64,000 nucleotides of DNA from Anaerolineae bacterium (GTDB taxonomy: Bacteria; Chloroflexota; Anaerolineae; Fen-1058): the NCBI GenBank assembly GCA_041300525.1, contig JBGLNJ010000001.1, forward strand, positions 748,854 through 812,853, read 5' to 3'. Shown in pieces: positions 4,014-63,924 of the stretch (positions are counted from its first letter, which is position 1; each line of letters opens with the position of its first letter). Under the pieces are notes generated by a model. The model did no database searches and had not been told where the DNA came from. It saw only the letters and a list, made by a program, of their open reading frames with translations. The position numbers were made by a program, and so were the translations under genes.

Positions 4014-4370
4014 TTATACCCACCCCGCCATCCTGCTATAGAGCATGGCCGCTAGCTCATAGCAAAAGATGGTGAAGCGAGAGTGTGTCTGTAGCCATTT
4101 GTATCCGAAAGCCGGTTCGCCCTCTGAGAACACCGAAAGCCAGTAAAACTCTTTCCAGCCCAGTTTTGTTGCAGTTGCCACCGCGCGTCTTGTGTAGAGG
4201 TCGAGGGTGACCAAGGTGGGGTGTTGCAGATGTTCTGCTTGAACGATGTCCATCGAATAAAGTAGATTCTCAAAGGTATTCAGTGACCGATCTTCTTCGA
4301 TGAGGCTCTCGCGCGGAACACCCAGGCGCATGGCATATTCATGAAGGATGAAAGATGAATTTGGATGCAC
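4014..4370 (-). pseudogene. DUF218 (YdcF/SanA/ElyC-like) C-terminal fragment, N-terminally truncated
   Basis: 118-aa ORF carrying the DUF218-type motif EEDRSLNTFENLLYS. The N-terminal half of the domain is absent, and the first codons are encoded by a heptamer-repeat hairpin. Confidence 0.35.
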
Positions 4371-4409
4371 TTTTCATCCTTCATCCCTCATCCTTCATCC
4401 TTGAAGGGG
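4339..4409. repeat. Inverted heptamer-array hairpin: (ATGAAGG)n ... (CATCCTT)n
   Basis: Tandem 7-nt units on the left arm and their reverse complements on the right arm, centred near 4370. Confidence 0.6.
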
Positions 4410-5949: not shown

Positions 5950-6002
5950 CCTGGTAACCTTCCGAACGTTCGCATACCTTTGGAAGGTTGAAGGCATAAG
6001 CC

Positions 6003-6904: not shown

Positions 6905-6936
6905 ACCTCATCATTCGACACCCGACATTCGATGAT
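6905..6936. repeat. Heptamer-type hairpin repeat (CATTCGA-like units) abutting the comEC start
   Basis: The sequence CATCATTCGACACCCGACATTCGATGATG runs directly into the ATGATG start. Confidence 0.4.
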
Positions 6937-12900: not shown

Positions 12901-15900
12901 GGCCATTGCCCATCAGCGCCGGCTCGCCGGATGGCGTGTCCACCGGCAGCGATAAATCGAGGTCGCCGTCCAGGTTCGCATCGAGGTACTGACCGGGCGC
13001 AAGCACGCCAGGCAAATCGTGTTCGAGGTAGCCGAGTTCGACGCCGGGGGGACTGGCGACCAGGCTCACGCGCAGGTCTGCGGGCGCGAATTGGCCCTGG
13101 TTGGGGCACACGCCATTGCCGAGCGTCGCCCACTCGTACTGCTGCGTGAGCGTAAAGTTTGAGCCAGCGAACGGCAACCCGATCGGGTTGATCACGCGCG
13201 GGCTGTTGAGCGGGTTCTTGTCCGGCATCGTCGCCCACACGCGCAGCGCGGTCTCTTCACTCGCAAGCGCGACCAGTTTGAGCGAGGTGGGCGATCCCAG
13301 CCATGCGCGTGGAACGAGCAGATCGGTGTGCGGTCGTAGATACCCTTCAGGGTGCGGACGCAGGCTGGTATCAAGTGCCCAGTGAGGCGTTGTACCCAAC
13401 GCCGAGTCAATCGTTTGACTGATCCATGCGCTGCCGTTCCAGGTCAATAGTCGCGCCGTGTTTTCATCCTCGACCCACAGGGCATAGTCGGCGGCCAGTT
13501 GGCTGCCATCTTGGGCGGGCAAGGTGATGACCGGGCCAGTGCCGTATGGATCATAGGCGTGCGTCGTCCCGCCGGGCTGCGTGTCGAGATAGATAAACAG
13601 ATCGCCATCGCTGTTCCAGTTTGCCCCAACCCAGGTAAAGCGAAGCGACGCATCACTCTGTGAGGCATCGTCCCACGAGAGATACAACTGCTGGACATCC
13701 TTGAGCGACGAGTGGCTCGGCGCGGCGCGCGCGATCTCGCGATCGGCTCCGATTTGCGAGCAGCCACTCTCCATCCAGCCGTGATATTTCAGGTCAGAAA
13801 TATAGTCGGGCGTGGTGGGGACATCGGCATAGATCGGGCCGACCGTCTGCCACTGCCAGTTGCCATAGATGTCTTGCGCGATGACCTGGGCATAGCGCTG
13901 CTGCGCTTCGCCGATCCACTGTTCGTGATAGCGATTAGCGGCGGGCGCATACGAGGTCAGGCCGGTCGTCGAGGTCGAACTCGGCGTCCAGCCGACGAGA
14001 TAGTTGCCCAGGCCCGCGCCATCGCTGCTGGCCGTCCACGTGATGATGACGGTCGGTGTGTATACATCTCGAATGGTCTGACCGGGCGCAAGGGTCGTGA
14101 ACACGCCTGCGCCATTGGTATAAGCCAGCGTCACGGTGACCGGCGACGGCGGCGCAAGATCAACTGTGACCGTCCGCGTGATCTGCGTGACGTGATTTGC
14201 GGCATCACTCGCGCGAGCGGTCACGGTATAGGGCGCACCATCCGGCTCTGCGCCCAGGTACCACAGGTAACGCCACTCGCCGCGCGCATAGTTAAAAGCC
14301 GCATCGTCCCACGGGCCGCCCGCTGTCGAGACCTGCACCGCCTCCAGCCCGACGCTATCGGTGACGGTGCCGGTGAGCACGACGCGCCCAAGCGAGACCC
14401 GATGCGTCGTCGTCACAACCGTATAACCGAACGTGAGCACGGGGGCCTGGGTGTCTACCGAGATCGTGATCGGCTGCGTCTCGGTCTGCACTTGACCAGT
14501 CCAATCCGAGGCCAGCGCGAGCAACGTGTATCGCCCCTCGCCAGCGGGCGTCCAGCTTGTCGTCCACAGCGTATCCGTCACCGTGCCGCTGGGCCAACTG
14601 GTGCTGATCAAGAATGTGCTGTTGACCGTGACGGTCAGGGTGCACAGCGAATTGACGGCATACGCGCCGACGTTGAGGCTGACGGGATTGAGCGTCGTGA
14701 GCACACTTTCGTGCGTGGGCGTGAGGACAGCCGAGGCCAACGGTGGCGTGTGGCTGGGGAGTGTGCCGGTCACGGTCGTGCAGTGATCGTAGCGGTCACA
14801 CGCGTGCAGCGTCGGCGTGATCGCCTGGTGACCATTGACGATGCACGCGGGCGTCAACCGGTAAAGGCGCGGCGTGCTGGACGTGGTCTGGTTCCACCAG
14901 GCGTCGTCATAGTACTGGCGATCAGCCGCCTGCAGCGCGCACGGGAACTGGAAATTGGCGGTCGTGAGGTTCATATCCTCGACCCAACCCTGGTAGACGG
15001 TCTGGGCCGCGCTGCCATTGCCGCGATAGGTCACGGTGATCGCCGCGCGCGGCGCCAGCGTGTCAATCTCGCCGCGCCAACGATTCCACGTTGCTTGATC
15101 GTCATTACGATTGTTGCGCGTGTCCGTGCCGCGCAGGTTGATTTGATAGGCGCCCTCCAGTCCCACTGGAACCGGATGGCTCCATGTCGTCCCGGTGACG
15201 CCCTCGCCGGATTGGGCCAGCGTCGTGTTGGCCCACGCGCCCGGCGTTTGACCAGCCGGCGTGAACGCGATCTCGAGTCGCTGCACTCCGGCGGCCACGA
15301 CGCTCGGATCGGTGACGACGCCGCTCAATGAGAGTGTTTGCGTAATGGTCGTGGACGAAGGCCCGGTATAGGTCAGCACAGCCACGGGCGGCGTGGTGTC
15401 CACACCCAGCGTGAGCGGCACAGGCGCAGTCTGATTGTTCAGCCGATCGGTCGCGCGAGCGTAGAACGTATAGACGCCCGTCGGGCTGCTCAGAGCCTGG
15501 TTGTCGCTGCCAAAAGCGGGCAAGACATAGTTCACGGCCCACGTGGCGCCGGCCAACGTCGCCGTCTGCCAGCCGCTCCCGTTCGGCGTGAGCAGCGTTG
15601 CGACGCTGTGTGTGCCGACGCCACCAGTGTCGTTCACCGTGCCGCTCATCGCCACTTGCCATCGCCCGGCGGCGTTGCGTGTTGCGCCGACGATGCTGTT
15701 GTCGGGCAGCGCAAAGCTCACGGCGGGCGGTGTTCGATCAAGAACGACGGTAACCAAAGTGGCCGGCCCGACGTTGCCCACCATGTCAATCGCGCGGACG
15801 CGGAGCGTGTGCGCCCCATCGGCAAGTGGGATGTTCCAATTATATGCCCACGATTCTGCGCCGGTTGCCGCTTGCCATGGCCCGCCGTCTTGGCTGACCT

Positions 15901-16708: not shown

Positions 16709-16940
16709 GGCCGGCTCTGAGGTGACGCCGGACGTGTTGGCCGAGGTTGGATTTGTAAAGTCCGCCAAGTTGCCTGTGGTTGTTTTGGGAGGGGGCGAGT
16801 TGCCCCATGCCCTCACGGTCAAAGCGCACCGCTTTTCCAAGTCGGCCCAGCAAAAGATAAAAGCGGCCGGCGGCACAGTCGAGGTGTTGCCGTTCGAGAA
16901 AAAGCGTGGCCACTCCACGAAAGGCAGAAATAACCCATGA
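16674..16940 (+). pseudogene. rplO: Ribosomal protein L15 gene, 3' remnant only (C-terminal ~85 aa); N-terminal Gly/Arg-rich half missing
   Basis: ...VGFVKSAKLPVVVLGGGELPHALTVKAHRFSKSAQQKIKAAGGTVEVL is an L15 C-terminus. Its stop overlaps the secY ATG (ATGA). No reading frame upstream encodes the L15 N-terminus; the giant gene's 5' end lies there on the other strand. Confidence 0.6.
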
Positions 16941-18277
16941 TCCAGGCTGTTCGCAACGCCTTTAATCTGCCGGACCTGCGCCGCAAGATCCTGTACACGT
17001 TCTTGATCATGGCGATCTATCGCCTGGCTTCGCACGTGCCAGTGCCGGGCGTCAACCAGGAAGCGCTGAAGCAGTTGCTCCAGGGTGGGTCGGCGGCCGG
17101 GGGCCTCATCAATCTGCTCGATTTGCTGTCGGGTGGGGCCATCGCCAACTTTAGCGTGTTGGCGATGGGAGTGTATCCCTACATCACGGCCTCGATCATT
17201 GTTCAATTGCTGATACCCATCATCCCGTACCTGGAGAATCTGCAAAAGGAGGGCGAAGCCGGACGGAACAAGATCAACCAATTCACCGTCTATGCGACGA
17301 TCCCGCTCGCGCTTTTGCAGGCCATCGGCCAGATTCGCCTCTTGACGGCCGGCACGGGCGGCGAGCAAGTCCTGCCGAGCTTTGGCTTTACCGGCTCACA
17401 ACTCTTGCCCACGATCACCATTCTAATCACGATGACGGCCGGCACGATGTTCGCCATGTGGCTGGGGCAAATGATTGACGAGCAGGGCATCGGCAACGGC
17501 GTCTCGCTGATTATCTTTGGCGGCATTGTGTCGCGTTTGCCACAAAACATTGGCAGTTTGTTGGTGGATCCTGCCACGCGCTGGGTGTCGTTGACGGCGT
17601 TCATCCTGATCACCGTGTTCACCATTCTGGTGATTGTGTACATGCAGGAAGGCCAGCGGCGCATCCCCGTGCAGTACGGCAAGCGCGTGCGCGGGCGCAA
17701 AGTGTTCGGCGGCGGCAGCACGCACATTCCGCTGCGCATCAACACCGCGGGCATGATCCCGCTGATCTTTGCCCAGTCTATTCTGACGTTCCCGGCGGTT
17801 ATCGCGCAGTTCTTGCCGGGTGCAGGGCAAGTTGGCACGTTTGCGCACACGTTGATCGCCATGTTCAGCGGCGGGCGACGTTCGGCTGCAGGTTTTGGGG
17901 ACTGGACGGCGATTTTTTACTGGACCGTGTATTTCTTGATGGTTGTCGGTTTTACGTACTTTTACACTGACGTGATGATGCAGCAGCAAAACCTGCCGGA
18001 TAACCTGCAAAAGCAAGGCGGGTTTATTCCCGGCATTCGTCCCGGCAAACGGACGGAGGAATACATCAACGGGGTGATGCGCCGGATCACGCTGGTGGGA
18101 TCGTTGCTCCTGGGGTTTGTCGCGGTGCTGCCGTTTCTCGTCAGCCCGATCCTGCCTGGCGCGACCAGCTTTTCGTTCATGAGCACGGGCCTGTTGATCG
18201 TCGTGGGCGTGGTGATTGATACGATGCGCCAGCTTGAAGCGCAGTTACTGATGCGCCACTATGAAGGAATTTTCTAG
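16937..18277 (+). CDS. secY: Preprotein translocase subunit SecY
   Basis: 446 aa, 10-TM SecY topology and motifs (GGLINLLDLLSGGAIANFSVLAMGVYPYITASIIVQLL). Confidence 0.95.
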   Translation: MIQAVRNAFNLPDLRRKILYTFLIMAIYRLASHVPVPGVNQEALKQLLQGGSAAGGLINLLDLLSGGAIANFSVLAMGVYPYITASIIVQLLIPIIPYLENLQKEGEAGRNKINQFTVYATIPLALLQAIGQIRLLTAGTGGEQVLPSFGFTGSQLLPTITILITMTAGTMFAMWLGQMIDEQGIGNGVSLIIFGGIVSRLPQNIGSLLVDPATRWVSLTAFILITVFTILVIVYMQEGQRRIPVQYGKRVRGRKVFGGGSTHIPLRINTAGMIPLIFAQSILTFPAVIAQFLPGAGQVGTFAHTLIAMFSGGRRSAAGFGDWTAIFYWTVYFLMVVGFTYFYTDVMMQQQNLPDNLQKQGGFIPGIRPGKRTEEYINGVMRRITLVGSLLLGFVAVLPFLVSPILPGATSFSFMSTGLLIVVGVVIDTMRQLEAQLLMRHYEGIF

Positions 18278-19112: not shown

Positions 19113-19120
19113 GGATTGGA

Positions 19121-19151
19121 GACCTGACAGGTTTCTAAAGCCTGTCAGGTC
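19121..19151 (+). other. Perfect 11-bp stem hairpin (GACCTGACAGG-N9-CCTGTCAGGTC) between adk and map
   Basis: Read directly from the sequence. No T-run follows. Confidence 0.4.
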
Positions 19152-19163
19152 TGAACCGGTTCT

Positions 19164-19934
19164 TTGACAATGCCCGTTGTTTTGAAATCGCCCCGCGAGT
19201 TGGAGTTGATGCGCCAGGCGGGTCACATTGTGGCCGAGGTGCTGGCACTGATGGGTGAGATGGTCAGGCCCGGCGTGACAACGGCAGAGTTGAACGCCGC
19301 CGCCGATGCGCTCATCCGCAAGCGCGGCGCGGCGCCGTCGTTCAAGGGGTATCACGGCTTCCCGGCTTCGATTTGCGCGTCCGTCAATACAGAGGTCGTG
19401 CATGGCATTCCGAGCAAGAAGCGCGCGTTGCGCGAGGGCGACCTGATCAGCGTGGACGTGGGAGCGATTTACAAGGGGTACCACGGCGACGCGGCGATGA
19501 CCTACTGCGTGGGCGCGCCCACACCGGAACAGCAGCGGCTGATGGATGTGACGCAGCAAGCGCTGGGGGTGGGCATTGTCCGGGCGCGCGCGGGGAATCG
19601 GCTGTGGGATATTATCCGCGCCATCGAAACGACGGTGCACGCAGCCGGGTACGATGTGCTGCACAACTATCAGGGGCACGGCATCGGACGCGAGATGCAC
19701 GAAGACCCCGGCATCCCGAACTCGCTGTCCGATTCGCGCGGGCGGCCGCCGAACTTGCTCCTGAGGCCGGGGATCACGCTGGCGATTGAGCCGATGGTCG
19801 TGATGGGCAGCGGCGAGCCGAGAGTCCTGGGCGATAATTGGACGGTGGTTTCAGCGGATGGAACGCTCTCGGCGCATTTTGAGCACACGATCGCGATTAC
19901 GAACGGCGAAGCGGAAATCTTGACAAAGTTGTAA
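19164..19934 (+). CDS. map: Type I methionine aminopeptidase
   Basis: 256 aa with MetAP-I metal-ligand motifs (…D…D…H…E…E). The ORF starts on TTG at 19164; the ATG at 19170 is an alternative. Confidence 0.9.
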   Translation: MTMPVVLKSPRELELMRQAGHIVAEVLALMGEMVRPGVTTAELNAAADALIRKRGAAPSFKGYHGFPASICASVNTEVVHGIPSKKRALREGDLISVDVGAIYKGYHGDAAMTYCVGAPTPEQQRLMDVTQQALGVGIVRARAGNRLWDIIRAIETTVHAAGYDVLHNYQGHGIGREMHEDPGIPNSLSDSRGRPPNLLLRPGITLAIEPMVVMGSGEPRVLGDNWTVVSADGTLSAHFEHTIAITNGEAEILTKL

Positions 19935-20033
19935 GGAGTGTCGAATGTCGAGTTCCGAATGTCGAATTTGGAGTTGCACATTTCTCTCATTCGACATTCG
20001 TCAATTGACACTCGACATTCGAGGGGGGTGAGC
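19935..20033. repeat. Inverted heptamer-array hairpin (GTCGAAT/CGAATGT ... CATTCGA units) filling the map-rpmJ spacer where infA normally sits
   Basis: GTCGAATGTCGAGTTCCGAATGTCGAAT ... CATTCGACATTCGTCAATTGACACTCGACATTCG. Its translation forms the spurious N-terminal extension of the rpmJ-frame ORF. Confidence 0.6.
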
Positions 20034-20147
20034 ATGAAAGTAACAGCGTCCGTCAAAAAGCGCTGTCCCAAGTGCAAGATCGTTCGGCGCAAAGGTATCC
20101 TGCGCGTCATTTGTGAGAATCCGAAGCACAAGCAACGGCAAGGGTAG
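20034..20147 (+). CDS. rpmJ: Ribosomal protein L36
   Basis: [37 protein letters not shown] (37 aa), the canonical L36 sequence. Confidence 0.85.
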
Positions 20148-20185
20148 TGGGCGTCATTTGACGCCGACTGTAGTGGAGGAATGAC

Positions 20186-20575
20186 ATGGCACGTATCGCA
20201 GGTGTGGACCTGCCCCGCAACAAGCGGGTGGAAATCGGCCTGACCTATATTTATGGGATCGGCGTGCCGAGCAGCCAAAGGATTCTGGCGCAGGCTGGCA
20301 TCAATCCCGACACGCGCATCAAAGACCTGTCCGAGGCCGAAGTCGGTCTGTTGCGCGAGGTCATCGAGAAGCAGTATAGGGTCGAAGGCGACCTGCGCCG
20401 CGAAGTCTCGATGAACATCAAGCGCATGACGGAAATCGGATGCTATCGCGGCCTGCGTCACCGGCGCAACTTGCCGGTGCATGGGCAACGCACGCGCACC
20501 AACGCGCGCACCAAGCGAGGCGTCAAAAAGACCGTGCCAGGGCGCGGCCGACGGCGCGGAGCGAAGAAGAAGTAA
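20186..20575 (+). CDS. rpsM: Ribosomal protein S13
   Basis: [26 protein letters not shown]... Confidence 0.95.
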
Positions 20576-20587
20576 GCAGGAGGATGA

Positions 20588-20983
20588 ATGGGGCGCAGTC
20601 AACGAGTCAAGCGGACAACCAAGAAAGCCAAGCGGACCGTTTCGCACGGCCAGGCGCACGTCCACGCGACGTTCAACAACACGATTGTCACCATCACCGA
20701 TGGGCAAGGCAACGCCGTGTCCTGGGGCAGCGCGGGCATGGCCGGCTTTAAAGGCAGCCGGAAGAGCACGCCCTACGCCGCCCGGATGGCCGCGCAGTCG
20801 GCGGCCAAGACCGCGATGGACATGGGCATGATGGAAATTGACATCCTTGTCAAAGGGCCTGGCCCTGGACGCGAGCAGGCCATTCGCACATTGCAGTCCG
20901 CCGGCTTGAGGGTCACTTCGATCACCGATGTGACGCCGGTTCCGCACAACGGTTGTCGTCCGCCAAAGAAGCGAAGAGTGTAG
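20588..20983 (+). CDS. rpsK: Ribosomal protein S11
   Basis: ...[23 protein letters not shown]...; 131 aa. Confidence 0.95.
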
Positions 20984-21091
20984 CCGATCAGTGATCAGTT
21001 ACTCTGTCAATCAGTTCTCAGTTATGGTTGGCCGAGTGACTGATTGACTGTTTACCGAGTAACTGAGCAACGATTACTATCAGGAGGAAGC
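20984..21091. repeat. Heptamer-periodic intergenic repeat (GATCAGT / ACTGATTGAC / CCGAGTAACTGAGCAAC motifs). It shares the 17-mer CCGAGTGACTGATTGAC with 23174..23254.
   Basis: GATCAGTGATCAGTTACTCTGTCAATCAGTTCTCAGTTATGGTTGGCCGAGTGACTGATTGACTGTTTACCGAGTAACTGAGCAACGATTAC between rpsK and rpsD. Confidence 0.6.
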
Positions 21092-21739
21092 ATGGCTCGA
21101 ATGATAGGGCCAGTGTGTAAACTGTGTCGTCGGGAAGGCGAGAAGCTGTTCTTGAAGGGCAGCCGGTGCGTGTCGCCCAAGTGCGCGATTGAAAAACGCG
21201 CCTATGCGCCTGGCATGCACGGCCAGTCCGGACAGTTCAAGCGAAGCCGCTCTTCCGACTATAGTGTGCAGTTGAGGGAAAAGCAAAAGGCGCGCCGCAT
21301 CTATGGTGTGCTGGAGAAGCAGTTCCGCCGCTATTTCACCCTGGCGCAACGCAGCAAGGGCCTGACCGGCGCGACGCTGTTGATGATTTTGGAGATCCGG
21401 TTGGATAACGTGGTGTACCGGATGGGCCTGGCCGAGTCCCGCCCTCAGGCGCGGCAGCTTGTCCAGCACGGTCACCTGGATGTGAATGGAGTTCGCACCA
21501 ACACGCCGGCCCATTTGCTCAAAGCGGGCGACGTCGTGAGCCTGCATCCTTCCAGTCGGGACACCGCCTACTTTAAGACGCTGGCCAAGGATATGGAAAA
21601 CCGACCGGCCTCGCCGCAGTGGTTGAGTGTGGATCCGGTCGGGTTGTCGGGGCGTGTGTTGCATCTGCCTTCGCGCGAAGAGCTTGATCTTTCGCTGAAT
21701 GAGCAGTTAATCGTCGAGTACTATTCGCGCAGGCTCTAG
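21092..21739 (+). CDS. rpsD: Ribosomal protein S4
   Basis: Start at [23 protein letters not shown] with RBS AGGAGGA; zinc-ribbon Cys motif. Confidence 0.9.
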
Positions 21740-21783
21740 TCCGTGCCGATGGAACTCTTTGTCATGCCAAATGGAGGCGTCAC

Positions 21784-22779
21784 TTGGCTAGCCTGAGTAT
21801 GGTTCTACCCAAGATCGAATGCGACGCCAGTTCCAAGAACTATGGGCGTTACATTATCGGGCCGCTGGAAAGCGGTTATGGCATTACGCTGGGCAATGCG
21901 CTGCGGCGCGTGCTGCTAAGCTCGTTGCCCGGCGCAGCGATTGCCTCCATCCGGCTGAGCGATGTCCATCACGAGTTTACGGACATCCCGCACGTGAGGG
22001 AGGACATGACCCAGATCATCCTGCAAGTCAAGCAGTTGCGGGTCAAGCTGACGGGTGAGGAACCTGTTCGCTTGCGGCTGGGCGTGCGGGGTGAAGGAAC
22101 GGTCACGGCGGGTGACATCCAGTGTCCGCCGGAAGTCGAGATCATCAACCCGGACCTGTACCTGTTCACGGTGGATAGTGACAAGGCCCGGCTGGAGATG
22201 GAACTGACCGTCGAGCCGGGGCGCGGGTACAGCCCGGCGGATGAGCGGGGGCGGCTGCCCATCGGCGAGTTGCCCGTGGATGCGATCTTTAGTCCCGTGC
22301 GCAAGTGCAACTATGAGATCGAGCGCGCGCGCGTCGGCCAGATGACGAACTATGACAAGCTCATCATGGAAATCTGGACGGACGGCACGCTTCGCCCGCA
22401 AGAGGCGCTCAGCCGCGCCGCACGTATCCTGGTTCAGCATTTCCAGTTGATCTCTGGCGTGACTGAAGAAATCAAGCTGGAAGAAGTGCCGCAGGCGACC
22501 ACGACTATCTCGCAGGAAATCTATGAAACGCCGATCGAGCAGCTCGACCTTTCCGTGCGGGTGTTCAACTCGCTCAAGCGCACCGGCATCACCAACGTGG
22601 GCGAAGTGCTCGAAATGTTGGGCCGGGGTGAAGAGGCCATGTTGACGATCCGCAACTTTGGACAAAAGTCGCTGACCGAGCTTCGCGAAAAGCTGATCGC
22701 CAAGAACTTTTTGAAGGAAGCCGACATGCCACCGGTGGTGATTACGGAAGGCGACGGCGATTCGGAGCAAGAAGAATAG
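21784..22779 (+). CDS. rpoA: DNA-directed RNA polymerase alpha subunit
   Basis: 331 aa with N-terminal assembly domain and alpha-CTD (VRVFNSLKRTGITNVGEV). Confidence 0.95.
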   Translation: MASLSMVLPKIECDASSKNYGRYIIGPLESGYGITLGNALRRVLLSSLPGAAIASIRLSDVHHEFTDIPHVREDMTQIILQVKQLRVKLTGEEPVRLRLGVRGEGTVTAGDIQCPPEVEIINPDLYLFTVDSDKARLEMELTVEPGRGYSPADERGRLPIGELPVDAIFSPVRKCNYEIERARVGQMTNYDKLIMEIWTDGTLRPQEALSRAARILVQHFQLISGVTEEIKLEEVPQATTTISQEIYETPIEQLDLSVRVFNSLKRTGITNVGEVLEMLGRGEEAMLTIRNFGQKSLTELREKLIAKNFLKEADMPPVVITEGDGDSEQEE

Positions 22780-22792
22780 AGGACGTGACACG

Positions 22793-23173
22793 ATGCGACA
22801 TCGAGTAGCTGGCAAGAAACTAAGCCGAACAGCCGATCAGCGCCTGGCGCTGCGGCGCACTTTGATCACCGATCTGTTTCGGTATGGCGCGCTCCAGACG
22901 ACGGAAGCCAAGATTGACGCTATTCGCGGCGCCGCCGAAAAGCTGATCACCAAGGCCAAACGCAGCCTCGCGGCGGGCGACCCGATCAAGGTCGTCAATG
23001 CGCGCCGCCTGGCCGCCGCGCAGTTGACCGACCCAGAGATCGTCAAGAAGCTGTTTGACGAGATCGCGCCCCGGTACGCCGAGCGTCCGGGCGGGTATAC
23101 CAGCGTCCGCAAGTTGGGCCGGCGATTGGGTGACGCCGCGCCGATAGCTTTGCTGGCATTGATCGAGGAGTAG
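22793..23173 (+). CDS. rplQ: Ribosomal protein L17
   Basis: MRHRVAGKKLSRTADQRLALRRTLITDLFRYGALQTTEAK... Confidence 0.9.
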   Translation: MRHRVAGKKLSRTADQRLALRRTLITDLFRYGALQTTEAKIDAIRGAAEKLITKAKRSLAAGDPIKVVNARRLAAAQLTDPEIVKKLFDEIAPRYAERPGGYTSVRKLGRRLGDAAPIALLALIEE

Positions 23174-23254
23174 GTAGTCAATCAGTCGCTCAACTAATCA
23201 GTAATCGGTGACTGAGTAACTGATTGACTGAGCAACTGATCACCGAGTGACTGA
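23174..23254. repeat. Heptamer-periodic intergenic repeat, second copy of the family seen at 20984..21091
   Basis: GTAGTCAATCAGTCGCTCAACTAATCAGTAATCGGTGACTGAGTAACTGATTGACTGAGCAACTGATCACCGAGTGACTGATTGACC. Confidence 0.6.
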
Positions 23255-23992
23255 TTGACCAGGTATAAAGCGACCATCGCGTATGACGGGACGGACTATC
23301 ACGGCTTTCAGCGCCAGGCTCCAGAGCATGAACCGACGATTCAAGGTGAAATAGAGCGGGCGCTGACCCAGATCGGCCAGCCGGGTGTCACCATCCTGGG
23401 CAGCGGGCGCACAGACGCAGGCGTTCACGCCAGCGGTCAAGTGATTGCGTTTAGCGCCGAATGGCGGCACAGCCGGCAAGACTTGCAACGCGCGCTCAAC
23501 GCGACACTCCCGGCGGACATTGCCGTGCTGGACCTGGACGAAGCGGCTTGCGATTTTCACCCGCGTTACGACGCGGTGAGCCGCGAGTACGTTTACACGA
23601 TTTACAATGCGCCTGTGCGGCATCCGCTTTACCGGTTGAACGCGCTGCACATCGCCGATCTACTCGATGTGAAAGCGATGGATGCAGCGGCGGCAGAGCT
23701 GGTAGGCGAGCATGACTTTGCCGCCTTTGGCCTTCCGACGGCAGGAGATGTCACCGTCCGGCGGATGCTGCGAGCGGAATGTCGAGCCGAGTTGCCGTTG
23801 GTGCGGCTGGAACTGGAAGCGAATGGCTTTCTGTACCGCATGGTGCGCAGCATTGCTGGGACGCTGCTCCTGGTAGGGCGGGGCGAGATGACGCGGGATC
23901 AGTTTCGCGCCGTGATGGAATCGCGCGACCGTTCCCGCGCTGGCGCGCCGGTTCCGCCGCAAGGGTTGTGTCTGACGCGCGTGAACTATTGA
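23255..23992 (+). CDS. truA: tRNA pseudouridine(38-40) synthase TruA
   Basis: ...YKATIAYDGTDYHGFQRQ..., including the catalytic Asp region; TTG start. Confidence 0.85.
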   Translation: MTRYKATIAYDGTDYHGFQRQAPEHEPTIQGEIERALTQIGQPGVTILGSGRTDAGVHASGQVIAFSAEWRHSRQDLQRALNATLPADIAVLDLDEAACDFHPRYDAVSREYVYTIYNAPVRHPLYRLNALHIADLLDVKAMDAAAAELVGEHDFAAFGLPTAGDVTVRRMLRAECRAELPLVRLELEANGFLYRMVRSIAGTLLLVGRGEMTRDQFRAVMESRDRSRAGAPVPPQGLCLTRVNY

Positions 23993-25001: not shown

Positions 25002-25038
25002 CAGAGGCAAGGCATTTCGCCTTGCCTCTTTGCCTTTT
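25002..25038 (+). terminator. Rho-independent terminator after rpsI
   Basis: GAGGCAAGGC-ATTTC-GCCTTGCCTC stem followed by TTTGCCTTTT. Confidence 0.6.
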
Positions 25039-29892: not shown

Positions 29893-29943
29893 CCGACGGA
29901 GGACGAACGACGAATGACATGGTCGTTCATCCTCCGTCATTCA
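29893..29943. repeat. Inverted heptamer-array hairpin (GGAGGAC GAACGAC GAATGAC ... GTCGTTC ATCCTCC GTCATTC) overlapping the stop codon of the channel gene
   Basis: Read directly from the sequence. Confidence 0.6.
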
Positions 29944-30841: not shown

Positions 30842-30935
30842 TCGACTTGATGCGAACGACGGACGTTCGATTCCGTCATTCGTCGTTCGTCACGCGAAGC
30901 GTCCCTCTTTAGGGGGGTTCGCCATTCGCCATTCG
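30842..30935. repeat. Heptamer-periodic hairpin repeat (TTCGTCA / GCCATTC units) between flotillin and pspA
   Basis: ...TCCGTCATTCGTCGTTCGTCACGCGAAGCG...GTTCGCCATTCGCCATTCGTCATGAC. Confidence 0.55.
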
Positions 30936-35319: not shown

Positions 35320-35360
35320 TCAGACGAAGGACGAAAGGCCATCGTTCGTCCTTCGTCATT
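35320..35360. repeat. Inverted heptamer-array hairpin (GACGAAG GACGAAA ... CGTTCGT CCTTCGT CA) between lgt and the tlpA-like gene
   Basis: Read directly from the sequence; it overlaps the tlpA-like stop codon. Confidence 0.55.
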
Positions 35361-37512: not shown

Positions 37513-38817
37513 CTACTTGCCGAACGTGATCCGGTAGATAACCCCGCCCTTGTCGTCGCTAACCATCAAGCTGCCGTCCGGCGCGACGGCCAACCCCACG
37601 GGCCGCCCCGAAACCTGACCGCCCTTCAGCCAACCTGTGGCAAAGTCCTTCACCAGCCCGGGGGGCTTGTCGCCGTCGAGCGGCACAAACACCACCTTGT
37701 AACCGGTGGGCACGCTGCGATTCCATGAGCCGTGGAACGCAATGAACAAGCCGTTGCGATATTCGGATGGGAACTGTGCGCCGGCGTAAAACGCCAACCC
37801 CAGCGGGGCCGAGTGTGCCTGCATTTCGACGACCGGCTTGGCGACGCCATCGCACGCGCCGGGATTGCCAAATTCGGGGTCAATGATGCGCCCACTGTGA
37901 CAGCGCGGCCATCCGGCGTCCAGGCCGTCTTTGACGATGTAGATCGTTTCGGGCGGGTTGTCGTCGCCGAGCCAGTCGCGTCCCATGCCGGTGGCCCATA
38001 GCTCGCCGGTGCGCGGATTGATCGCCAAGCCAACGGCATTCCGCAATCCGCGCGCGAACACGCGCCCATTCTTGCCGTCCACATCGTATACCATCACAGC
38101 AGCGCGGCGCTCGTCTTTTTCAATACACACGTTGCAGCTCGACCCGATCGAAACGTACAGCTCGCCCGTGGGGCCAAACAACACGGTGCGTGTGTTGTGA
38201 CCACCGGACGGCAGGCCATCAATCACTACACTCCGCTTGATGGCGCGATGCGTGATGGGATCAAGCTCGAGCCGCGTGATGCGCGTCGTCTCGCCGACAT
38301 ACAGCGAACCATCCGATGCGAATGCCAGTGAGGACGGCGCGATGAGATTCTCGGCCACGACGATGGGCGCATCGGCCACGCCATCGTCGTTGGCATCCAC
38401 CAATGCCACAATCCTGTTGGCTCCACGCTCGGCCACATACAACACGCCATCCGGCCCATAGGTCATAAAGCGCGGCCCGTTGAGCCGGGCAAAGAGAGTA
38501 GCGCGAAAACCGGACGGCAGTTGCACATCGGTTGCGATAGGAGCACGATTGACCGGCGTCGGCTTGGGCAAGGCTGTGGCCGTCGGTGAAACGGCTGGAG
38601 GTGGAGACACGACGAGTGGCGTTGACGTGGCAGGTGGAGTTGGTGCGCTAGTTGGCGGTAAGCTCACAAGCGGCAAAGTAGCAGGCGAAATTGGCGTACC
38701 AGTCGGCGGCACGCTCGCGATTGGCGCGGCCTTACATGCCGCCACCAAACACATCAGCAAGACAGCGCCGACACACCCGAGTCGACACCTCCTCACAGGT
38801 CTCCATTCATCATTCAA
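37513..38817 (-). CDS. PQQ-dependent sugar (glucose/sorbosone) dehydrogenase family lipoprotein
   Basis: Lipobox LLMCLVAAC, Pro/Thr/Ser linker, six-bladed propeller motifs (GPDGVLYVAERGANRIVAL; GPDGSLMVSDDKGGVIYR). Annotated start is inside a heptamer repeat; the likely true start is the GTG at ~38796. Confidence 0.75.
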   Translation of the reverse strand: MNDEWRPVRRCRLGCVGAVLLMCLVAACKAAPIASVPPTGTPISPATLPLVSLPPTSAPTPPATSTPLVVSPPPAVSPTATALPKPTPVNRAPIATDVQLPSGFRATLFARLNGPRFMTYGPDGVLYVAERGANRIVALVDANDDGVADAPIVVAENLIAPSSLAFASDGSLYVGETTRITRLELDPITHRAIKRSVVIDGLPSGGHNTRTVLFGPTGELYVSIGSSCNVCIEKDERRAAVMVYDVDGKNGRVFARGLRNAVGLAINPRTGELWATGMGRDWLGDDNPPETIYIVKDGLDAGWPRCHSGRIIDPEFGNPGACDGVAKPVVEMQAHSAPLGLAFYAGAQFPSEYRNGLFIAFHGSWNRSVPTGYKVVFVPLDGDKPPGLVKDFATGWLKGGQVSGRPVGLAVAPDGSLMVSDDKGGVIYRITFGK

Positions 38818-38851
38818 TATTCGTCACTCGTCACTCGACATTCGTCATTCA
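38797..38851. repeat. Heptamer tandem array (CATTCAT CATTCAA TATTCGT CACTCGT CACTCGA CATTCGT CATTCAT) between the acyl-CoA dehydrogenase stop and the PQQ-DH start
   Basis: Read directly from the sequence. The ORF's MNDEW start is encoded by GAATGAT GAATGGA units. Confidence 0.6.
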
Positions 38852-46386: not shown

Positions 46387-46461
46387 TGCGTACTGCGTGC
46401 TGCGTAATGAAACACGGAATACGCAGTACGCAATACGTAGCACGAAGCACATTCTAATTCG
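46387..46461. repeat. Inverted heptamer-array hairpin (TGCGTAC TGCGTGC TGCGTAA ... ACGCAGT ACGCAAT ACGTAGC ACG), copy 1, flanking the GT2 gene
   Basis: Begins inside the TAA stop of the upstream gene. Perfect 12-nt arms TGCGTACTGCGT / ACGCAGTACGCA. Confidence 0.65.
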
Positions 46462-47421: not shown

Positions 47422-47500
47422 CGTACTTCGTACTGCGTAATGCATAACGGGACAGAGCACAAAGTACGCAGTACGAAACACGTAGCACGTCTGCTACCTG
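47422..47500. repeat. Inverted heptamer-array hairpin, copy 2 (CGTACTT CGTACTG CGTAATG ... TACGCAG TACGAAA CACGTAGCACG), in direct orientation relative to copy 1
   Basis: Shares ...GTACTGCGTAATG... and ...ACGCAGTACG.AA.ACGTAGCACG with copy 1. It also begins inside the upstream TAA stop. Confidence 0.65.
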
Positions 47501-49983: not shown

Positions 49984-50033
49984 ATATCGAATGACGAGTG
50001 CGAGTGTCGAACAGTTGACCCGCCTTCCCTGCC
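49984..50033. repeat. Short heptamer-type repeat (TCGAATGACGAGTGCGAGTGTCGAAC)
   Basis: Read directly from the sequence. Confidence 0.35.
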
Positions 50034-54853: not shown

Positions 54854-54944
54854 GTTTTTCTCCGCGAATCACGCGAATCCCCGCCAATCTTTCTGATTCG
54901 CGCCCATTCGCGTTATTCGCGGAAAAAGATATGGAGGCTAACCC

Positions 54945-55517: not shown

Positions 55518-56536
55518 TCCGCGAATCAATCGCCAAACTGATGGATGATCAGAACCTGACACTCGCCGAAGCCGAAAGTGTGATGAACGAGATCATGGAC
55601 GGCTTGGCGACACACGCGCAGATGGCGGCGTTCCTGACGGCGCTGCGTTTGAAAGGCGAGACGGTGGACGAGATCACCGGCTGCGCGAAGGTGATGCGCG
55701 ACAAAGCGGTGGCGGTCCAGCCGACCCGTACGGATCTGGTGGACACGGCCGGCACGGGCGGCGACGGCGCGGACACGTTCAACATTTCCACGACGGCCGC
55801 ATTCGTCATCGCCGGCGCGGGACTGGGCGTGGCCAAGCACGGCAATCGGGCCGTGTCGAGCCAGAGTGGCAGCGCGGATGTGCTCGAGGCGCTCGGCGTG
55901 AACCTCGATCTGACGCCGGTCCAGGTGGCACGGTGCATTGACGAGATCGGCCTCGGGTTTTTGTTCGCCCAAAAGCTGCACCCCGCGATGAAGAACGTCG
56001 CGCCGGTCCGCAAAGAACTCGGCATCCGCACCATCTTTAACATCCTCGGCCCGCTGACGAATCCCGCGCGCACGCCCGCGCAGATCGTGGGCGTGTACGA
56101 CGCGCGGCTCACGACGACGATGGCGCACGTTTTGCACGCGCTCGGCGCGCGCGCCGCATTTGTGTTTCACAGCGAGGACGGCCTGGACGAGCTCACGACG
56201 ACGGGCATTAACCAAGTCGCACGTTTTGACAACGGCACGGTTTACGAAGGGGAACTGGATGCGTGCGCGTTGGGGCTGGCGCGCGCCTCGCGCGCCGACT
56301 TGCGTGGCGGTCGCCCCGATCAGAACGCGCAGACCACCCAGAACGTCCTCTCCGGCGCAGAGTGCGGTCCCAAGCGCGACGTGGTGGCGTTGAACGCGGC
56401 GGCGGCACTTGTCGCCGGCGGCAAGGCGCGTGACCTCCGGGAAGGTCTCGAACGCGCGAGCGATTCAATGGATTCAGGCGGGGCCATGCGCGTACTGGAT
56501 GGCCTGGTGGCGTTGAGCAACAGTTTTAGATTGTAG
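55514..56536 (+). CDS. trpD: Anthranilate phosphoribosyltransferase
   Basis: ...[22 protein letters not shown]...; 340 aa. Confidence 0.9.
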
Positions 56537-56586
56537 ATTTCAGGTTGCAGATTTTAGATTAGCCGTCCCATTCTAACAATCCGCAA

Positions 56587-56690
56587 TTCAATGTCGTTAA
56601 GTTAGGGCCGTAGCGTAGGGCCTTGTGCCCGTTTCCGCGCTTGGAAAGACGCCCACAAGGGGCTATGCTACGCTTATCTTGATGACATTG
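56587..56690. repeat. ~100-bp repeat element, copy B (inverted relative to copy A), between trpD and trpC
   Basis: ATTCAATGTCGTTAAGTTAGGGCCGTAGCGTAGGGCCTTGTGCCCGTTTCCGCGCTTGGAAAGACGCCCACAAGGGGCTATGCTACGCTTATCTTGATGACATTGA. Confidence 0.8.
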
Positions 56691-58318: not shown

Positions 58319-59494
58319 ATGAACGGACGATTCGGACCTTATGGGGGCCAGTTTGTCCCCGAAACACTGATGCCTGTGCTGGCAGAGTTGGAAGAATCGC
58401 TCAATGCGGCGCTGGCCGATCAAGAATTCTGCGCGCAACTGGCCGACCTGGCCGCGCATTACTCGGGCCGGCCCACGCCGCTCTATTTTGCGCGGCGGCT
58501 GACGGAATATTGCGGCGGCGCGAAAATCTATCTCAAGCGTGAAGACCTGGCCCACACCGGCGCGCATAAAATCAACAACGCGCTCGGACAAGGGTTGCTG
58601 GCGCGGCGTATGGGCAAGGCGCGCATCGTGGCGGAAACAGGCGCGGGACAGCACGGCGTCGCGTCGGCGGCAGTGTGCGCGATGCTCGGCCTTCAGTGCG
58701 TCGTCTACATGGGCACGGAAGACATGCGCCGTCAAGCGCCGAATGTGTTTCGCATGAAATTGCTGGGCGCCGAGGTGCGCCCGGTGGATGGCGGCAGCGC
58801 CACACTCAAGGATGCCATCAACGAAGCCATCCGCGATTGGGTGACGAACGTCCGCGACACGCATTACCTGCTCGGCTCCGCGCTCGGCCCGCATCCTTAT
58901 CCGATCATGGTGCGCGAATTTCAATCCGTCATCGGCCACGAGGCGCGCGCGCAAATCCTGGACGCGGAAGGCCGGCTGCCGGATTTGCTCATCGCGTGCG
59001 TCGGCGGCGGGTCGAATGCTATCGGTTTGTTTGATGCTTTCCGCGACGACGACGTCGCCCTGCTCGGCGTCGAGGCGGGCGGATTGGGGATTGCCTCAGG
59101 CCAGCACGCGGCGCGGTTTGCCGAGGCGCGGCCTGGCGTGTTGCAGGGGACGTACACCTACGTCTTGCAAGACGACGACGGTCAGATTCGCGGCACGCAC
59201 TCGGTTTCGGCCGGGTTGGACTATGCCGCCGTCGGCCCGGAGCACGCTTACTTGCGCGACACCGAGCGCTCGGGTTACACCTATGCCACCGACGATGAGG
59301 CGCTCAACGCGTTCGCCAAGCTGTCGCAGATCGAAGGCATCATCCCTGCGCTCGAATCGGCGCATGCAGTGGCGGAGACGATCAAGCGAGCGCCTATGAT
59401 GAAGCGCGACCAGATTATCCTGGTGAATTTATCGGGGCGCGGCGACAAGGACTTGCAGACCGTTATGGATGCTGGAATGGCGAATGACGAATGA
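58319..59494 (+). CDS. trpB: Tryptophan synthase beta subunit
   Basis: [18 protein letters not shown]...; PLP-binding [10 protein letters not shown]-terminal MANDE* is encoded by a heptamer repeat. Confidence 0.9.
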
Positions 59495-59540
59495 CGAAGG
59501 CATAGTTCATCTTTCGTCGTTCGTCCTTCGTCAGTCTTGA
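59474..59540. repeat. Inverted heptamer-array hairpin (GAATGGC GAATGAC GAATGAC GAAGG ... CTTTCGTCGTTCGTCCTTCGTC) spanning the trpB stop
   Basis: Read directly from the sequence; the TGA stop lies within the GAATGAC unit. Confidence 0.6.
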
Positions 59541-63847: not shown

Positions 63848-63924
63848 CGGTGGATTTTAGGAGAGTGCAATTAAGGGGGCAATGTCGCCGTTTGAGATTG
63901 GAGATTTTAGATTTGGGAGCATCC

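Follow-up and report, generated by a model that had tools for sequence, protein, structure and literature searches.

Tandem heptanucleotide repeats, known from bacteria since 1990, are still poorly understood. Cyanobacterial short tandemly repeated repetitive (STRR) heptamers, reportedly described by Mazel in 1990, and the long simple-sequence-repeat (long-SSR) heptanucleotides occur only in non-coding DNA and in large numbers in certain lineages, with polymerase slippage proposed as their origin. The STRR units CCCCAGT and CAACAGT contain a CAGT/ACTG core. REP/BIME and REPIN elements of Enterobacteria and Pseudomonas share one conserved consensus throughout a genome and have a cognate RAYT transposase; REP elements are thought to affect the upstream gene, both in the stability of its mRNA and in its translation.

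The long-SSR heptanucleotide class of prokaryotes goes back to Mrazek 2007, as summarised in PMC4679880 and PMC4692102. In Xanthomonas campestris and X. axonopodis about 90% of GGGAATC tandem heptamers are intergenic, and each genome holds 70-75 convergent array pairs for which a stem-loop or cruciform is possible. These arrays lie 28 nt from the upstream and 160 nt from the downstream ORF, are rare between divergent genes, and differ in length and presence among close species (Rehm et al. 2015, PMC4692102). Direct repeats of TAACTGA occur in marine Beggiatoaceae and in some Cyanobacteria and Bacteroidetes; a single unit dominates, and one case in 170 is inverted (MacGregor 2015, PMC4679880). 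Chloroflexota go unmentioned in the TAACTGA paper, and no description of such repeats in Chloroflexota was found in the literature searched.

The stretch of DNA analysed here (64,000 nt, hereafter the window) comes from an uncultured Anaerolineae/Thermoflexales MAG. Using a lag-k scan with a run criterion of at least 15 of 21 matches at lag 7, we found 13 period-7 runs in the window against 0.7 in shuffled sequence (~18-fold), and 0-2 runs at periods 4, 5, 8, 10, 11 and 13. Intergenic DNA makes up only 9.1% of the window, yet 11 of the 13 period-7 runs are located there (binomial P = 2e-10), while the syntenic 50-kb region of E. coli has a single such run, within coding sequence. Across 1.43 Mb from 76 Anaerolineae loci, period 7 gave 104 intergenic and 27 coding runs; period 8 gave 29 intergenic runs, and periods 4, 5, 10, 11 and 13 gave 2-7. 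The heptamer arrays thus share the defining properties of long-SSR/STRR-type repeats, three or more tandem copies of a 7-nt unit (TRF) that are in excess over other non-triplet periods and confined to non-coding DNA. Convergent array pairs of the Xanthomonas type are likewise found among the arrays of this lineage: 47 of the 104 (~45%) have at least two inverted units no more than 90 nt away, as compared with 3 and 9 for control patterns. This mirrored-array architecture is present in Anaerolineae MAGs including Thermoflexales, Promineifilaceae and Ardenticatenaceae.

An initial sequence-only reading of the window had proposed intergenic hairpins that form a dispersed class, united by architecture and not by a common consensus, and the results agree with it: the 89 arrays in co-directional spacers are built from about 80 different units. 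That reading was to be given up if period 7 were no more frequent than in shuffled sequence or if the elements were restricted to the window; the excess over shuffles, largely intergenic, and the 104 intergenic runs in loci across the lineage speak for it on both counts. Two of its qualifiers have to be dropped. The class is not “genome-specific”, the same architecture being found throughout several Anaerolineae groups, and the periodicity is not strictly 7 nt, since periods 7, 8 and 9 all occur. Its statement that more than twelve loci share one architecture stands in part: the sharing loci number ten, all significant two-armed hairpins, once two direct arrays (38797 and 49984) and a marginal member (6905) are subtracted from the 13 listed. 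The hairpin loci 4339, 19935, 29893, 30842, 35320, 46387, 47422 and 59474 have folding z-scores of -2.6 to -6.3. Absent from its list were the loci 56523-56600, 63887-63919 and 54854-54944. The placement at gene boundaries that it described, including map/rpmJ, rpsK/rpsD and rplQ/truA, was confirmed by Pfam-annotated gene calls on an identical public contig.

The focal locus (19935-20033), with GTCGAAT-type heptamers in the left arm and ATTCGAC-type heptamers in the right, contains a plus-strand hairpin of GAATGTC-type units and their mirror (19935..20022; TRF and folding) that fills the map/rpmJ spacer. It begins 1 nt past the map stop codon, and the rpmJ ribosome-binding site GAGGGGGG follows directly after its last pair. 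Folded as RNA, it has an energy of -41.3 kcal/mol (z = -5.5), and none of 200 shuffled sequences was as stable. The rpsK/rpsD spacer is filled by a plus-strand hairpin at 20984..21085 (-37.6 kcal/mol, z = -3.7) with TCAGT-type left units and ACTGA-type right units in mixed 7- and 8-nt spacing, whose stem base extends as far as the opening G residues of the rpsD ribosome-binding site. The rplQ/truA spacer is filled by a third plus-strand hairpin at 23174..23257 (TRF period 8/16; -31.4 kcal/mol, z = -3.9). Its right arm, composed of 8-nt units (GTGACTGA GTAACTGA TTGACTGA GCAACTGA ... GTGACTGA), continues into the TTG start of truA without an adjacent ribosome-binding site; downstream genes other than truA retain a clear Shine-Dalgarno sequence.

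Outside the ribosomal cluster, the hairpin at 4339..4409 combines ATGAAGG-type units with a mirrored CCTTCAT-type array (TRF period 7 in both arms; RNA fold -28.4 kcal/mol, z = -3.4) and is flanked by divergent genes, a DUF218 gene on the minus strand and a KDPG aldolase gene on the plus strand (Pfam). The marginal member at 6905..6936 (plus strand), upstream of a DUF4131 gene, has two to three CATTCGA-like units in a short palindrome seen in the sequence and was not detected by the period-7 scan. On the minus strand, a hairpin of GACGAAC/GACGAAT units and their mirror at 29893..29943 (-34.1 kcal/mol, z = -6.3) sits at the 3' end of an ion-channel-domain gene (Pfam). A composite minus-strand element at 30842..30935, between a Band_7/SPFH gene and a PspA-family gene (TRF; -36.1 kcal/mol, z = -2.6; Pfam), consists in sense-strand order of the stop codon, direct CGAATGG units, a small hairpin and a GACGAAC-type hairpin. 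The short hairpin GACGAAGGACGAA / TTCGTCCTTCGTC at 35320..35360 (minus strand; -21.8 kcal/mol, z = -5.7) separates a thioredoxin-like gene from lgt (Pfam). Two plus-strand hairpins of one unit family stand on opposite sides of one GT2 gene: TGCGTAC units with a mirrored GTACGCA array at 46387..46461 (TRF; -29.2 kcal/mol, z = -4.5), flanked by a phosphodiesterase gene and the GT2 glycosyltransferase gene (Pfam), and a TGCGTAC/GTACGCA hairpin at 47422..47500 (TRF; -27.2 kcal/mol, z = -2.8).

Mirrored arms are missing from some arrays. Seven GAATGAC/GAGTGAC units (sense strand; TRF 7.3 copies) form a direct array at 38797..38851 on the minus strand, which fills the gap between the acyl-CoA dehydrogenase stop codon and the following gene's ribosome-binding site and is unstructured (-2.7 kcal/mol, z = +1.36). 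The weak plus-strand array at 49984..50033 (CGAATGA CGAGTG CGAGTGT CGAACAG, recognised in the sequence) also lacks a mirror arm. A promoter scan called none of the elements but placed one promoter-like site (TTGACC, 17 nt, TAGAAT) across the 3' part of this array. A direct GAGATTT/TAGATTT array 3' of the DAHP synthase gene (63887..63919, plus strand; TRF and period scan) forms no clear hairpin (z = -1.1). Plus-strand elements are also located between trp genes (Pfam). The trpE/trpG spacer is filled by a hairpin of 9-nt units, CGCGAATCN and its mirror (54854..54944; spacer fold -37.3 kcal/mol). Between trpD and trpC, a TAGATTG/CAGATTT array with a partial AATC-type mirror arm (56523..56600; TRF 4.9 copies; period scan; z = -2.3) provides the trpD stop codon. 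The trpB/trpA hairpin of GAATGAC/GAATGGC units and their mirror (59472..59540; TRF; -33.8 kcal/mol, z = -4.7) holds the trpB stop codon (TGA, 59492-59494) inside its third left-arm unit.

The elements run from the upstream stop codon to just short of the next ribosome-binding site. Arrays are a median of 0.5 nt away from the stop codon, which 47% of them overlap; between array and called start the median is 18.5 nt, an approximate value because genes in related loci were called with a simple home-made caller. Spacers with two-armed elements have a median length of 117 nt, of which the stop-to-array and array-to-start distances together account for only about 28 nt. Array density per kb is 0.56 in co-directional, 0.76 in convergent and 0.23 in divergent spacers, and the GC content of elements is about 45% against about 60% genome-wide. 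In Anaerolineae genomes these elements inflate spacer length and can mask start codons, and they probably contribute to contig breaks in Anaerolineae MAGs.

Comparison with related genomes, which the sequence-only reading had suggested, showed orthologous spacers that are empty, filled with other units, or inverted. At rplQ/truA, the two genes overlap in one relative, L012 (GAGGAGTGAGATACC), and most relatives have an element-free spacer of at most 14 nt, while in the window and in locus L011 the spacer is ~80 nt long with units GAGTGACT and GAGTAACT similar to the L012 junction. These units resemble the ancestral junction, and it is mainly from this one spacer that local seeding appears probable. 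In relatives, rpsK/rpsD units begin with the stop codon (TAGTCNNN), and a hairpin is retained in this spacer across a family-level clade (L011-L026) despite total sequence turnover. The map/rpmJ spacer among relatives is empty, holds other units, or holds a non-periodic hairpin; in L006 the focal element is reverse-complemented in situ, loop included (alignment score 93 vs 64 direct). Orthologous rpsD/rpoA hairpins differ in sequence and all fold, with double changes at 8 of 23 consensus pairs. In one set of map/rpmJ strain variants every stem substitution keeps pairing (series U-A, U.G, C-G); in other variants reference pairs are broken, yet the fold is equal or better. Strain-level covariation comes from three ribosomal spacers, because exact-protein look-ups of genes beside non-ribosomal elements gave only one or two contigs each. 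The complementarity of the two arms reaches 0.66 when they are in register, 0.57-0.61 when they are shifted by 7 and 0.35-0.40 when they are out of phase. Since both arms are repeats, the stem can re-pair one unit out of register, which makes it tolerant of units gained or lost.

Of 70 elements, 50 are more stable when folded as the sense strand and 20 when folded as the antisense strand. This was dropped as a sign of selection on RNA, as 534 non-heptamer spacers are equally biased (395 vs 136); the advantage of the sense strand is due to spacer composition. On the sense strand there are 52 G-G and 8 C-C mismatches, a difference that probably comes from G richness.

We give roughly even chances to the explanation that the elements are simple-sequence-repeat palindromes that grew locally and that correspond, in Anaerolineae, to the long heptanucleotide repeats known from cyanobacteria, Xanthomonas and Beggiatoaceae. 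A unit of 7-9 nt would be seeded from gene-junction sequence and then multiplied by replication slippage; fold-back template switching or between-arm recombination would mirror the array, giving two arrays of opposite polarity. Because units that are not a multiple of three shift the reading frame, arrays would survive only between genes, where they may expand until they reach the stop codon on one side and the next ribosome-binding site on the other, the limits between which they are observed. As the operons are ordinary and the elements have no terminator features, they are presumably transcribed, and in the mRNA they would form long, imperfect hairpins between cistrons. Such a hairpin may persist as the configuration least disturbing to operon expression: it would keep the stop codon near the start region despite ~100 inserted bases, so that translational coupling could survive, and it could also shield the 3' end of the upstream cistron. 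In this explanation read-through of the elements by RNA polymerase, folding of the hairpins in vivo and any effect on coupling or stability are proposed. Against it, covariation between arms could reflect homogenisation of palindromes at the DNA level instead of selection on RNA, and slippage alone leaves the 7-nt preference and the enrichment of the ACTG core unexplained.

The sequence-only reading likened the elements to REP/MITE sequences or to a structured-RNA class, and neither likeness is supported. Mobile hairpins of the REP/REPIN or MITE kind, spread by a transposase acting in trans, would account for elements that are dispersed, intergenic and hairpin-shaped, that are missing from orthologous sites in relatives and at one site lie in the opposite orientation, and whose unit families are common to neighbouring elements; a fixed-consensus palindrome, AGACTTCSGAAGTCT, is even present as a pair in both L017 and L022, in different spacers. 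We nevertheless regard mobility as very improbable. The copies have no common consensus or fixed sequence, no terminal inverted repeats distinct from the arrays were seen, and there is no transposase among the ~40 Pfam-annotated genes of the window. In the one filled/empty comparison, at rplQ/truA, no clear target-site duplication was seen; GAGTRR stands at both ends of the filled site and is better read as a trace of local seeding, because it is the same as the repeat unit and as the ancestral junction, which the units there resemble. Moreover, arrays differ by whole units, like slippage products, and the inversion can be accounted for by between-arm recombination. As for a structured-RNA class, comparison of the entire window with Rfam found nothing at gathering scores, an E-value search of 19900-23300 gave only chance miRNA-hairpin matches (E = 0.14-0.5), and orthologous spacers hold unrelated sequences. 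That the elements act as Rho-independent terminators or attenuators is scarcely credible. They do lie directly 3' of stop codons, and divergent spacers contain fewer of them than co-directional and convergent ones, but none is followed by a U-tract and none was called by a terminator scan, while canonical terminators with a GC-rich stem and a T run are found elsewhere (3' of rpsI at 25003-25029, called by the same scan, and in 50876-50969). Their stems are AT-rich compared with the genome, long and mismatched, and they occupy mid-operon positions in essential operons (rpsK/rpsD, trpB/trpA). The elements are neither intrinsic terminators, fixed-consensus mobile elements nor a conserved RNA family.

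Two further readings assign the elements a function. Long imperfect stems could be selected as processing or stability elements in polycistronic mRNA (for example RNase III substrates, 3'-exonuclease barriers or partial attenuators) that set different expression of neighbouring cistrons. Strong hairpin z-scores, the rpsK/rpsD hairpin that outlasts sequence turnover, compensatory changes in stems and a 3'-end location like that of E. coli REP elements are in line with this, as is the general occurrence of structured spacers in these genomes (z < -2 in 43% of non-heptamer spacers). It nevertheless seems rather unlikely, given patchy presence at one junction among close relatives, tolerance of the inverted copy in L006 and unstructured direct arrays in equivalent positions (38797-38851); nor was a strand-specific G.U signature found, G.U and A.C mismatches on a Watson-Crick-only skeleton numbering 61 and 51, which is not significant. 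Alternatively, the arrays could be sites for a protein that reads single 7-nt units on RNA or single-stranded DNA, the hairpin being secondary; by analogy with what was suggested for Beggiatoaceae TAACTGA repeats, the reader might be a cold-shock-domain or S1-like protein. ACTG/CAGT-core units are enriched (24 of 104 vs 8.3 expected, z = 5.9), a bias that hints at a sequence-reading factor, and tandem NNACTGA is the commonest unit family (34 vs 1-10 for permuted cores), its orientation being mixed across loci (13 forward, 17 reverse) because most are hairpin arms. Units also resemble each other more within one genome than between genomes, with neighbouring elements sharing unit families: 11.8% of same-locus comparisons are within one mismatch as against 3.1% between different genomes (permutation P = 4e-4). 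The start-abutting rplQ/truA array without a ribosome-binding site has a described parallel in BOGUAY (PMC4679880), and Nostoc heptamer repeats are reported to have modest regulatory effects (bioRxiv 10.1101/2022.06.06.494920). Against a reader protein, the ACTG core is missing from most units and there is almost one unit per locus; periods 8 and 9 are present, units in a hairpin would be double-stranded, and exact TAACTGA is at chance level in the window (4 copies vs 2.0 expected; 14 of 100 shuffles reach 4). We judge this reading improbable.

A separate use of the units as three-frame stop pads was rejected, the excess of stop-containing units being weak (48 sense and 39 antisense vs ~35 expected). 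More speculatively, distant, mostly filamentous lineages (Cyanobacteria, Beggiatoaceae, some Bacteroidetes, Anaerolineae) might have in common a dedicated activity that writes or maintains ACTG-core heptad arrays, which Anaerolineae would use as register-sliding intercistronic hairpins that set translational coupling. We see only a small chance of this; if true, the arrays would be a sequence-degenerate, architecture-defined layer of operon regulation instead of repeat debris.

Regarded as locally grown repeat palindromes, the elements are not new in kind; they are another lineage's version of known heptamer repeats, with the inverted GGGAATC arrays of Xanthomonas, TAACTGA repeats and cyanobacterial STRR as nearest precedents. 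They extend the heptanucleotide-repeat phenomenon to Chloroflexota (Anaerolineae), in which the mirrored-array hairpin is the common form and takes all the space from stop codon to ribosome-binding site; ribosomal-protein and tryptophan operons are no exception. Closely related metagenomic genomes hold one and the same site in empty, filled, re-registered and inverted form, which makes two questions testable by comparison: the origin of the elements, by local slippage and mirroring or by transposition, and the constraint upon them, on pairing or on sequence.

Compared with REP/BIME elements, they are likewise intergenic palindromes at gene 3' ends within operons and few in divergent spacers, but they have no consensus and are built from tandem units, without a transposase among the genes annotated; even their loops are unrelated to one another. 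They share with STRR sequences the tandem non-coding heptanucleotide and the enriched CAGT/ACTG core. They differ in that the mirrored-array hairpin is the common form and consensus STRR arrays are absent: no triple of the STRR units CCCCAGT, TTGGTCA or CAACAGT was found with up to two substitutions in the window or 75 related loci. TAACTGA repeats are similar in having an ACTGA-core heptamer in intergenic positions and in ribosomal-protein operons, and the right arm of the window's rplQ/truA element (..GTAACTGA..GTGACTGA|TTG) and that of L011 fit the start-codon-abutting TAACTGA arrangement of the orange Guaymas “Maribeggiatoa” (BOGUAY). In Anaerolineae, however, ACTGA is just one of many unit families; its units frequently have 8 nt and in most cases face a mirrored TCAGT array, and TAACTGA triple units occur in only two related loci. 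Xanthomonas, although it belongs to a different phylum, offers intergenic tandem heptamers in convergent pairs, nearer to the upstream ORF and poorly represented in divergent spacers, as here. Its repeats have a single G-rich consensus per genome with quadruplex potential, whereas GGGAATC arrays were found neither in the window nor in related loci, and the Anaerolineae elements are AT-rich (~45% GC), have nearly one unit per locus and fill the spacers between stop codon and ribosome-binding site, including those of ribosomal-protein and trp operons.

Between the map stop codon and the rpmJ start, interval 19935-20033 consists of GGAGTGTCGAATGTCGAGTTCCGAATGTCGAAT, a loop and CATTCGACATTCGTCAATTGACACTCGACATTCGAG; Tandem Repeats Finder (TRF) reports period 7 in both the left and the right arm, and the RNA fold (-41.3 kcal/mol) is more stable than its shuffles (z = -5.5). 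A lag-k identity scan, with a run defined as at least 15 of 21 matches and block shuffles as control, returned 13 period-7 runs in the window versus 0.7 in shuffles, 11 of them in intergenic DNA, which makes up 9.1% of the window (P = 2e-10). The intergenic enrichment proposed in the sequence-only reading is thereby borne out. Periods 4, 5, 8, 10, 11 and 13 gave 0-2 runs each, and a syntenic 50-kb stretch of E. coli K-12 contains one period-7 run, which is intragenic. The thirteen loci listed in that reading as having one architecture are less uniform: ten are two-armed hairpins (z from -2.6 to -6.3), 38797-38851 is a seven-unit direct array without a mirror arm that is less structured than shuffles (z = +1.36), 49984-50033 is a weak direct array, and 6905-6936 is a marginal member. 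The 7-nt periodicity, described there as strict, applies to the two-armed hairpins except for two with a period near 8, namely 20984-21091, where 7- and 8-nt units are mixed, and 23174-23254 (TRF period 8/16). Missing from the list were 56523-56600 (trpD/trpC), 63887-63919 and 54854-54944, the last having a 9-nt unit and otherwise the same architecture. The best promoter-like site of the region (50015-50043; TTGACC, 17 nt, TG-TAGAAT) shares sequence with the 3' portion of the weak array at 49984-50033 and lies immediately 5' of ORF 50034-50357. In-frame tandem repeats of 18/36/54 nt at 34027-34198 and 2426-2537, within ORFs 33528-34430 (weak YqiJ_N match) and 1184-2602, are coding repeats with no relation to the heptamer class.

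An identical copy of the window's RpsM is encoded on NCBI, ENA, JGI and Logan assembly contigs, among them MAG GCA_041300535.1, where the gene order is also the same (adk-map-rpmJ-rpsM-rpsK-rpsD-rpoA-rplQ-truA-rplM-rpsI). The hairpins are present again in independent assemblies and are therefore no assembly artefacts. An RpoA scan of species-representative genomes matched Anaerolineae (Chloroflexota) only, and the best matches (84-88% identity) carry the label Thermoflexales or Anaerolineae. Across the window and 75 RpoA-matched loci (1.43 Mb, genes assigned by a simple codon-model call), 104 period-7 runs are intergenic versus 27 coding, and the class is thus not limited to the window; intergenic runs number 2-7 for periods 4, 5, 10, 11 and 13, and 29 for period 8. 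The same design with very different units (TAGGGAC, CAGTTGT, GAGTGGC, GGATGAA and others) is found in Ca. Promineofilum, Ardenticatenaceae and groundwater MAGs, many of whose elements fold into 5-bp helices with 2x2 mismatches between them. The trait, initially taken to be genome-specific, is therefore lineage-wide.

The elements are AT-rich (~45% GC versus ~60% for the genome) and occupy a narrowly defined position. Within co-directional spacers, arrays lie a median of 0.5 nt from the upstream stop codon, and 47% overlap it; for trpB and trpD of the window, this stop codon falls inside a repeat unit. The array ends a median of 18.5 nt before the called start, approximately a ribosome-binding site plus spacing. 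Spacers with two-armed elements have a median length of 117 nt, and the unpaired remainder, both sides summed, is ~28 nt. Array density per kb is 0.76 in convergent, 0.56 in co-directional and 0.23 in divergent spacers. At least two reverse-complement units lie within 90 nt of 47 of the 104 arrays, versus 3 for reversed-only and 9 for complemented-only control units. In register, 66% of positions are complementary between the two arms; a one-unit slide leaves 57-61%, and an out-of-phase alignment 35-40%. The stem can therefore re-pair after unit gain or loss. Internal-loop mismatches in the stems of heptamer elements across loci are strongly strand-asymmetric (52 G-G versus 8 C-C, sense strand), which may reflect the G richness of sense-strand spacers. 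Unit sequences are extremely diverse, but not completely so. Elements of the same locus are more alike than elements of different genomes (P = 4e-4), and common unit families link window neighbours 46387 and 47422, 20984 and 23174, and 29893, 30842 and 35320.

According to Pfam annotation, the neighbours are ordinary operons: the ribosomal alpha-operon region, a Band_7-PspA-ion channel cluster, a phosphodiesterase/GT2 cluster, lgt with a thioredoxin-like gene, an acyl-CoA dehydrogenase gene, and an aromatic amino-acid cluster in the order trpE, 9-nt hairpin, trpG-trpD, heptamer element, trpC-trpF, small hairpin, trpB, heptamer hairpin, trpA, running on to a DAHP synthase gene and then an array. 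A minus-strand ORF (9962-17368, up to 2468 aa) adjoins and nominally overlaps rplO and secY (16602-18277, plus strand); the ribosomal cluster therefore starts at rplO, without upstream spc-operon genes. The infA gene is missing between map and rpmJ in the window. The elements have no match in Rfam and were rejected as members of its RNA families. Among co-directional spacers of 45-160 nt in the window and 25 related loci, z is below -2 in 43% of the 163 heptamer-free spacers (median z = -1.65) versus 75% of the heptamer-bearing ones. Spacers of these genomes are typically strongly structured, and the heptamer hairpin is thus one of several ways to an intercistronic hairpin. Structured heptamer-free spacers of the window include 19113-19163 (adk/map, perfect 15-bp stem), 40577-40656 (long GC-rich stem) and 5950-6002.

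Conserved synteny allows orthologous spacers to be compared; they turn over rapidly and retain foldability. The rplQ/truA spacer is at most 14 nt in most relatives. In the relative L012 the two genes overlap (GAGGAGTGAGATACC), and rplQ codons GAGGAG precede the truA GTG; the last rplQ codons could act here as the truA ribosome-binding site. The window and L011 have ~80 nt here, with units GAGTGACT and GAGTAACT resembling the L012 junction, and L023 and L019 have unrelated hairpins. The rpsK/rpsD spacer (87-213 nt) is hairpin-rich in all close relatives (L011-L026), with differing units and periods; several have units starting with the stop codon (TAGTCNNN), and L022 has three such direct units only. 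More distant Anaerolineae (L030, L032, L034-L039) have, immediately 5' of rpsD, a conserved GGTGTAAACACACC hairpin and then GTGTGGAGGAAGCC; this candidate S4 autoregulatory leader is lacking in the window. Between map and rpmJ, L012 has a heptamer hairpin with a different unit (GGTATCA), L011 and L022 have hairpins without periodicity, and more distant relatives have short spacers. TTGGA-type heptamer hairpins between rpsD and rpoA in six relatives differ in sequence and all fold, with double changes at 8 of 23 pairs in an uncertain alignment. Close relatives L013-L021 have a conserved hairpin, GCGGTCGAGCGGTTGGCCAGATGGTTCGATCGC, ~60-20 nt 5' of rpoA (e.g. L019:9945-9985), which has covarying stem positions and directly precedes the rpoA ribosome-binding site. 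The window, where the rpsD/rpoA spacer is only 44 nt, lacks this hairpin, possibly an uncharacterised leader or processing element. A REP-like, fixed-consensus palindrome of ~40 nt, in which two AGACTTCSGAAGTCT copies form a perfect hairpin, coexists with heptamer hairpins in different spacers of two MAGs (L017:9912-9945, rpsD/rpoA; L022:8159-8191, map/rpmJ).

Strain variants of map/rpmJ carry three stem substitutions, all of which keep pairing (series U-A, U.G, C-G); in two other spacers reference pairs are broken and the fold is equal or better by re-registering. In L006, which encodes an identical RpsM, the map/rpmJ element matches the reverse complement of the window element from end to end, including the loop (alignment score 93 versus 64 direct). 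This is an in-situ inversion, of the kind that recombination or template switching involving both arms would produce.

The reading we prefer, with about an even chance of being correct, is that of locally slipped, mirrored, transcribed hairpins that keep translational coupling. Units would derive from junction sequence and be multiplied by slippage, arrays would be mirrored through fold-back copying, and they would persist only where a 7-nt indel spares reading frames. Transcribed inside operons, they would then fold, leaving the stop codon and the next start region effectively ~25-30 nt apart, so that coupled translation would survive the insertion; the folded form may also shield the upstream 3' end. 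The clearest case for stop/start proximity by folding is truA (23255), whose TTG start, without an adjacent Shine-Dalgarno/ribosome-binding site, is paired in the basal stem, facing the rplQ stop codon.

Hairpins selected for regulation or processing seem unlikely. Two tests for selection at the RNA level spoke neither for nor against it: the sense strand folds better than the antisense strand in 50 versus 20 elements, the same bias is seen in heptamer-free spacers (395 versus 136), and the excess of G.U over A.C stem mismatches (61 versus 51) is not significant. That heptad arrays are protein-binding sites is argued mainly from a TAACTGA-like arrangement and from the ACTG bias (an ACTG/CAGT core in 24 of 104 units versus 8.3 expected, z = 5.9; tandem NNACTGA the commonest family, with 34 occurrences versus 1-10 for permuted cores), and we regard it as decidedly unlikely. 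Mobile REP/MITE-like elements are improbable, the shared sequence of such elements being absent among ~80 distinct heptamers in 89 arrays, and a terminator role is extremely improbable, as the terminator scan found no U-tract 3' of the elements and called none of them terminator-like; a textbook terminator lies 3' of rpsI at 25003-25029.

The heptamer-hairpin class is real, statistically robust and lineage-wide, and belongs to a known but unexplained kind whose oldest example is the STRR heptamers of cyanobacteria. In the literature searched, we found no paper on heptamer repeats of this type in Chloroflexota. The closest precedent is the Xanthomonas GGGAATC repeat, whose arrays are ~90% intergenic, nearer the upstream ORF and rare between divergent genes, with 70-75 cases per genome of two arrays converging into potential stem-loops (PMC4692102). 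The ACTGA family resembles the TAACTGA direct repeats found just 5' of start codons in Beggiatoaceae, Cyanobacteria and Bacteroidetes, for which a translational role and S1, Csp or CsrA-like binders were proposed; the same paper relays an earlier proposal that polymerase slippage favours heptamers (PMC4679880). Modest regulatory effects were reported for Nostoc heptamer repeats (bioRxiv 10.1101/2022.06.06.494920). The Anaerolineae elements have the generic features of long SSRs and fit none of the specific consensuses of STRR, Xanthomonas or TAACTGA repeats. Their empty, filled, re-registered and inverted alleles make an unusually good comparative system for the origin and constraints of heptamer repeats. 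They differ from the precedents in phylum, in the near absence of a fixed unit, in the dominance of the hairpin form, and in the tight stop-codon-to-ribosome-binding-site fit in core operons.
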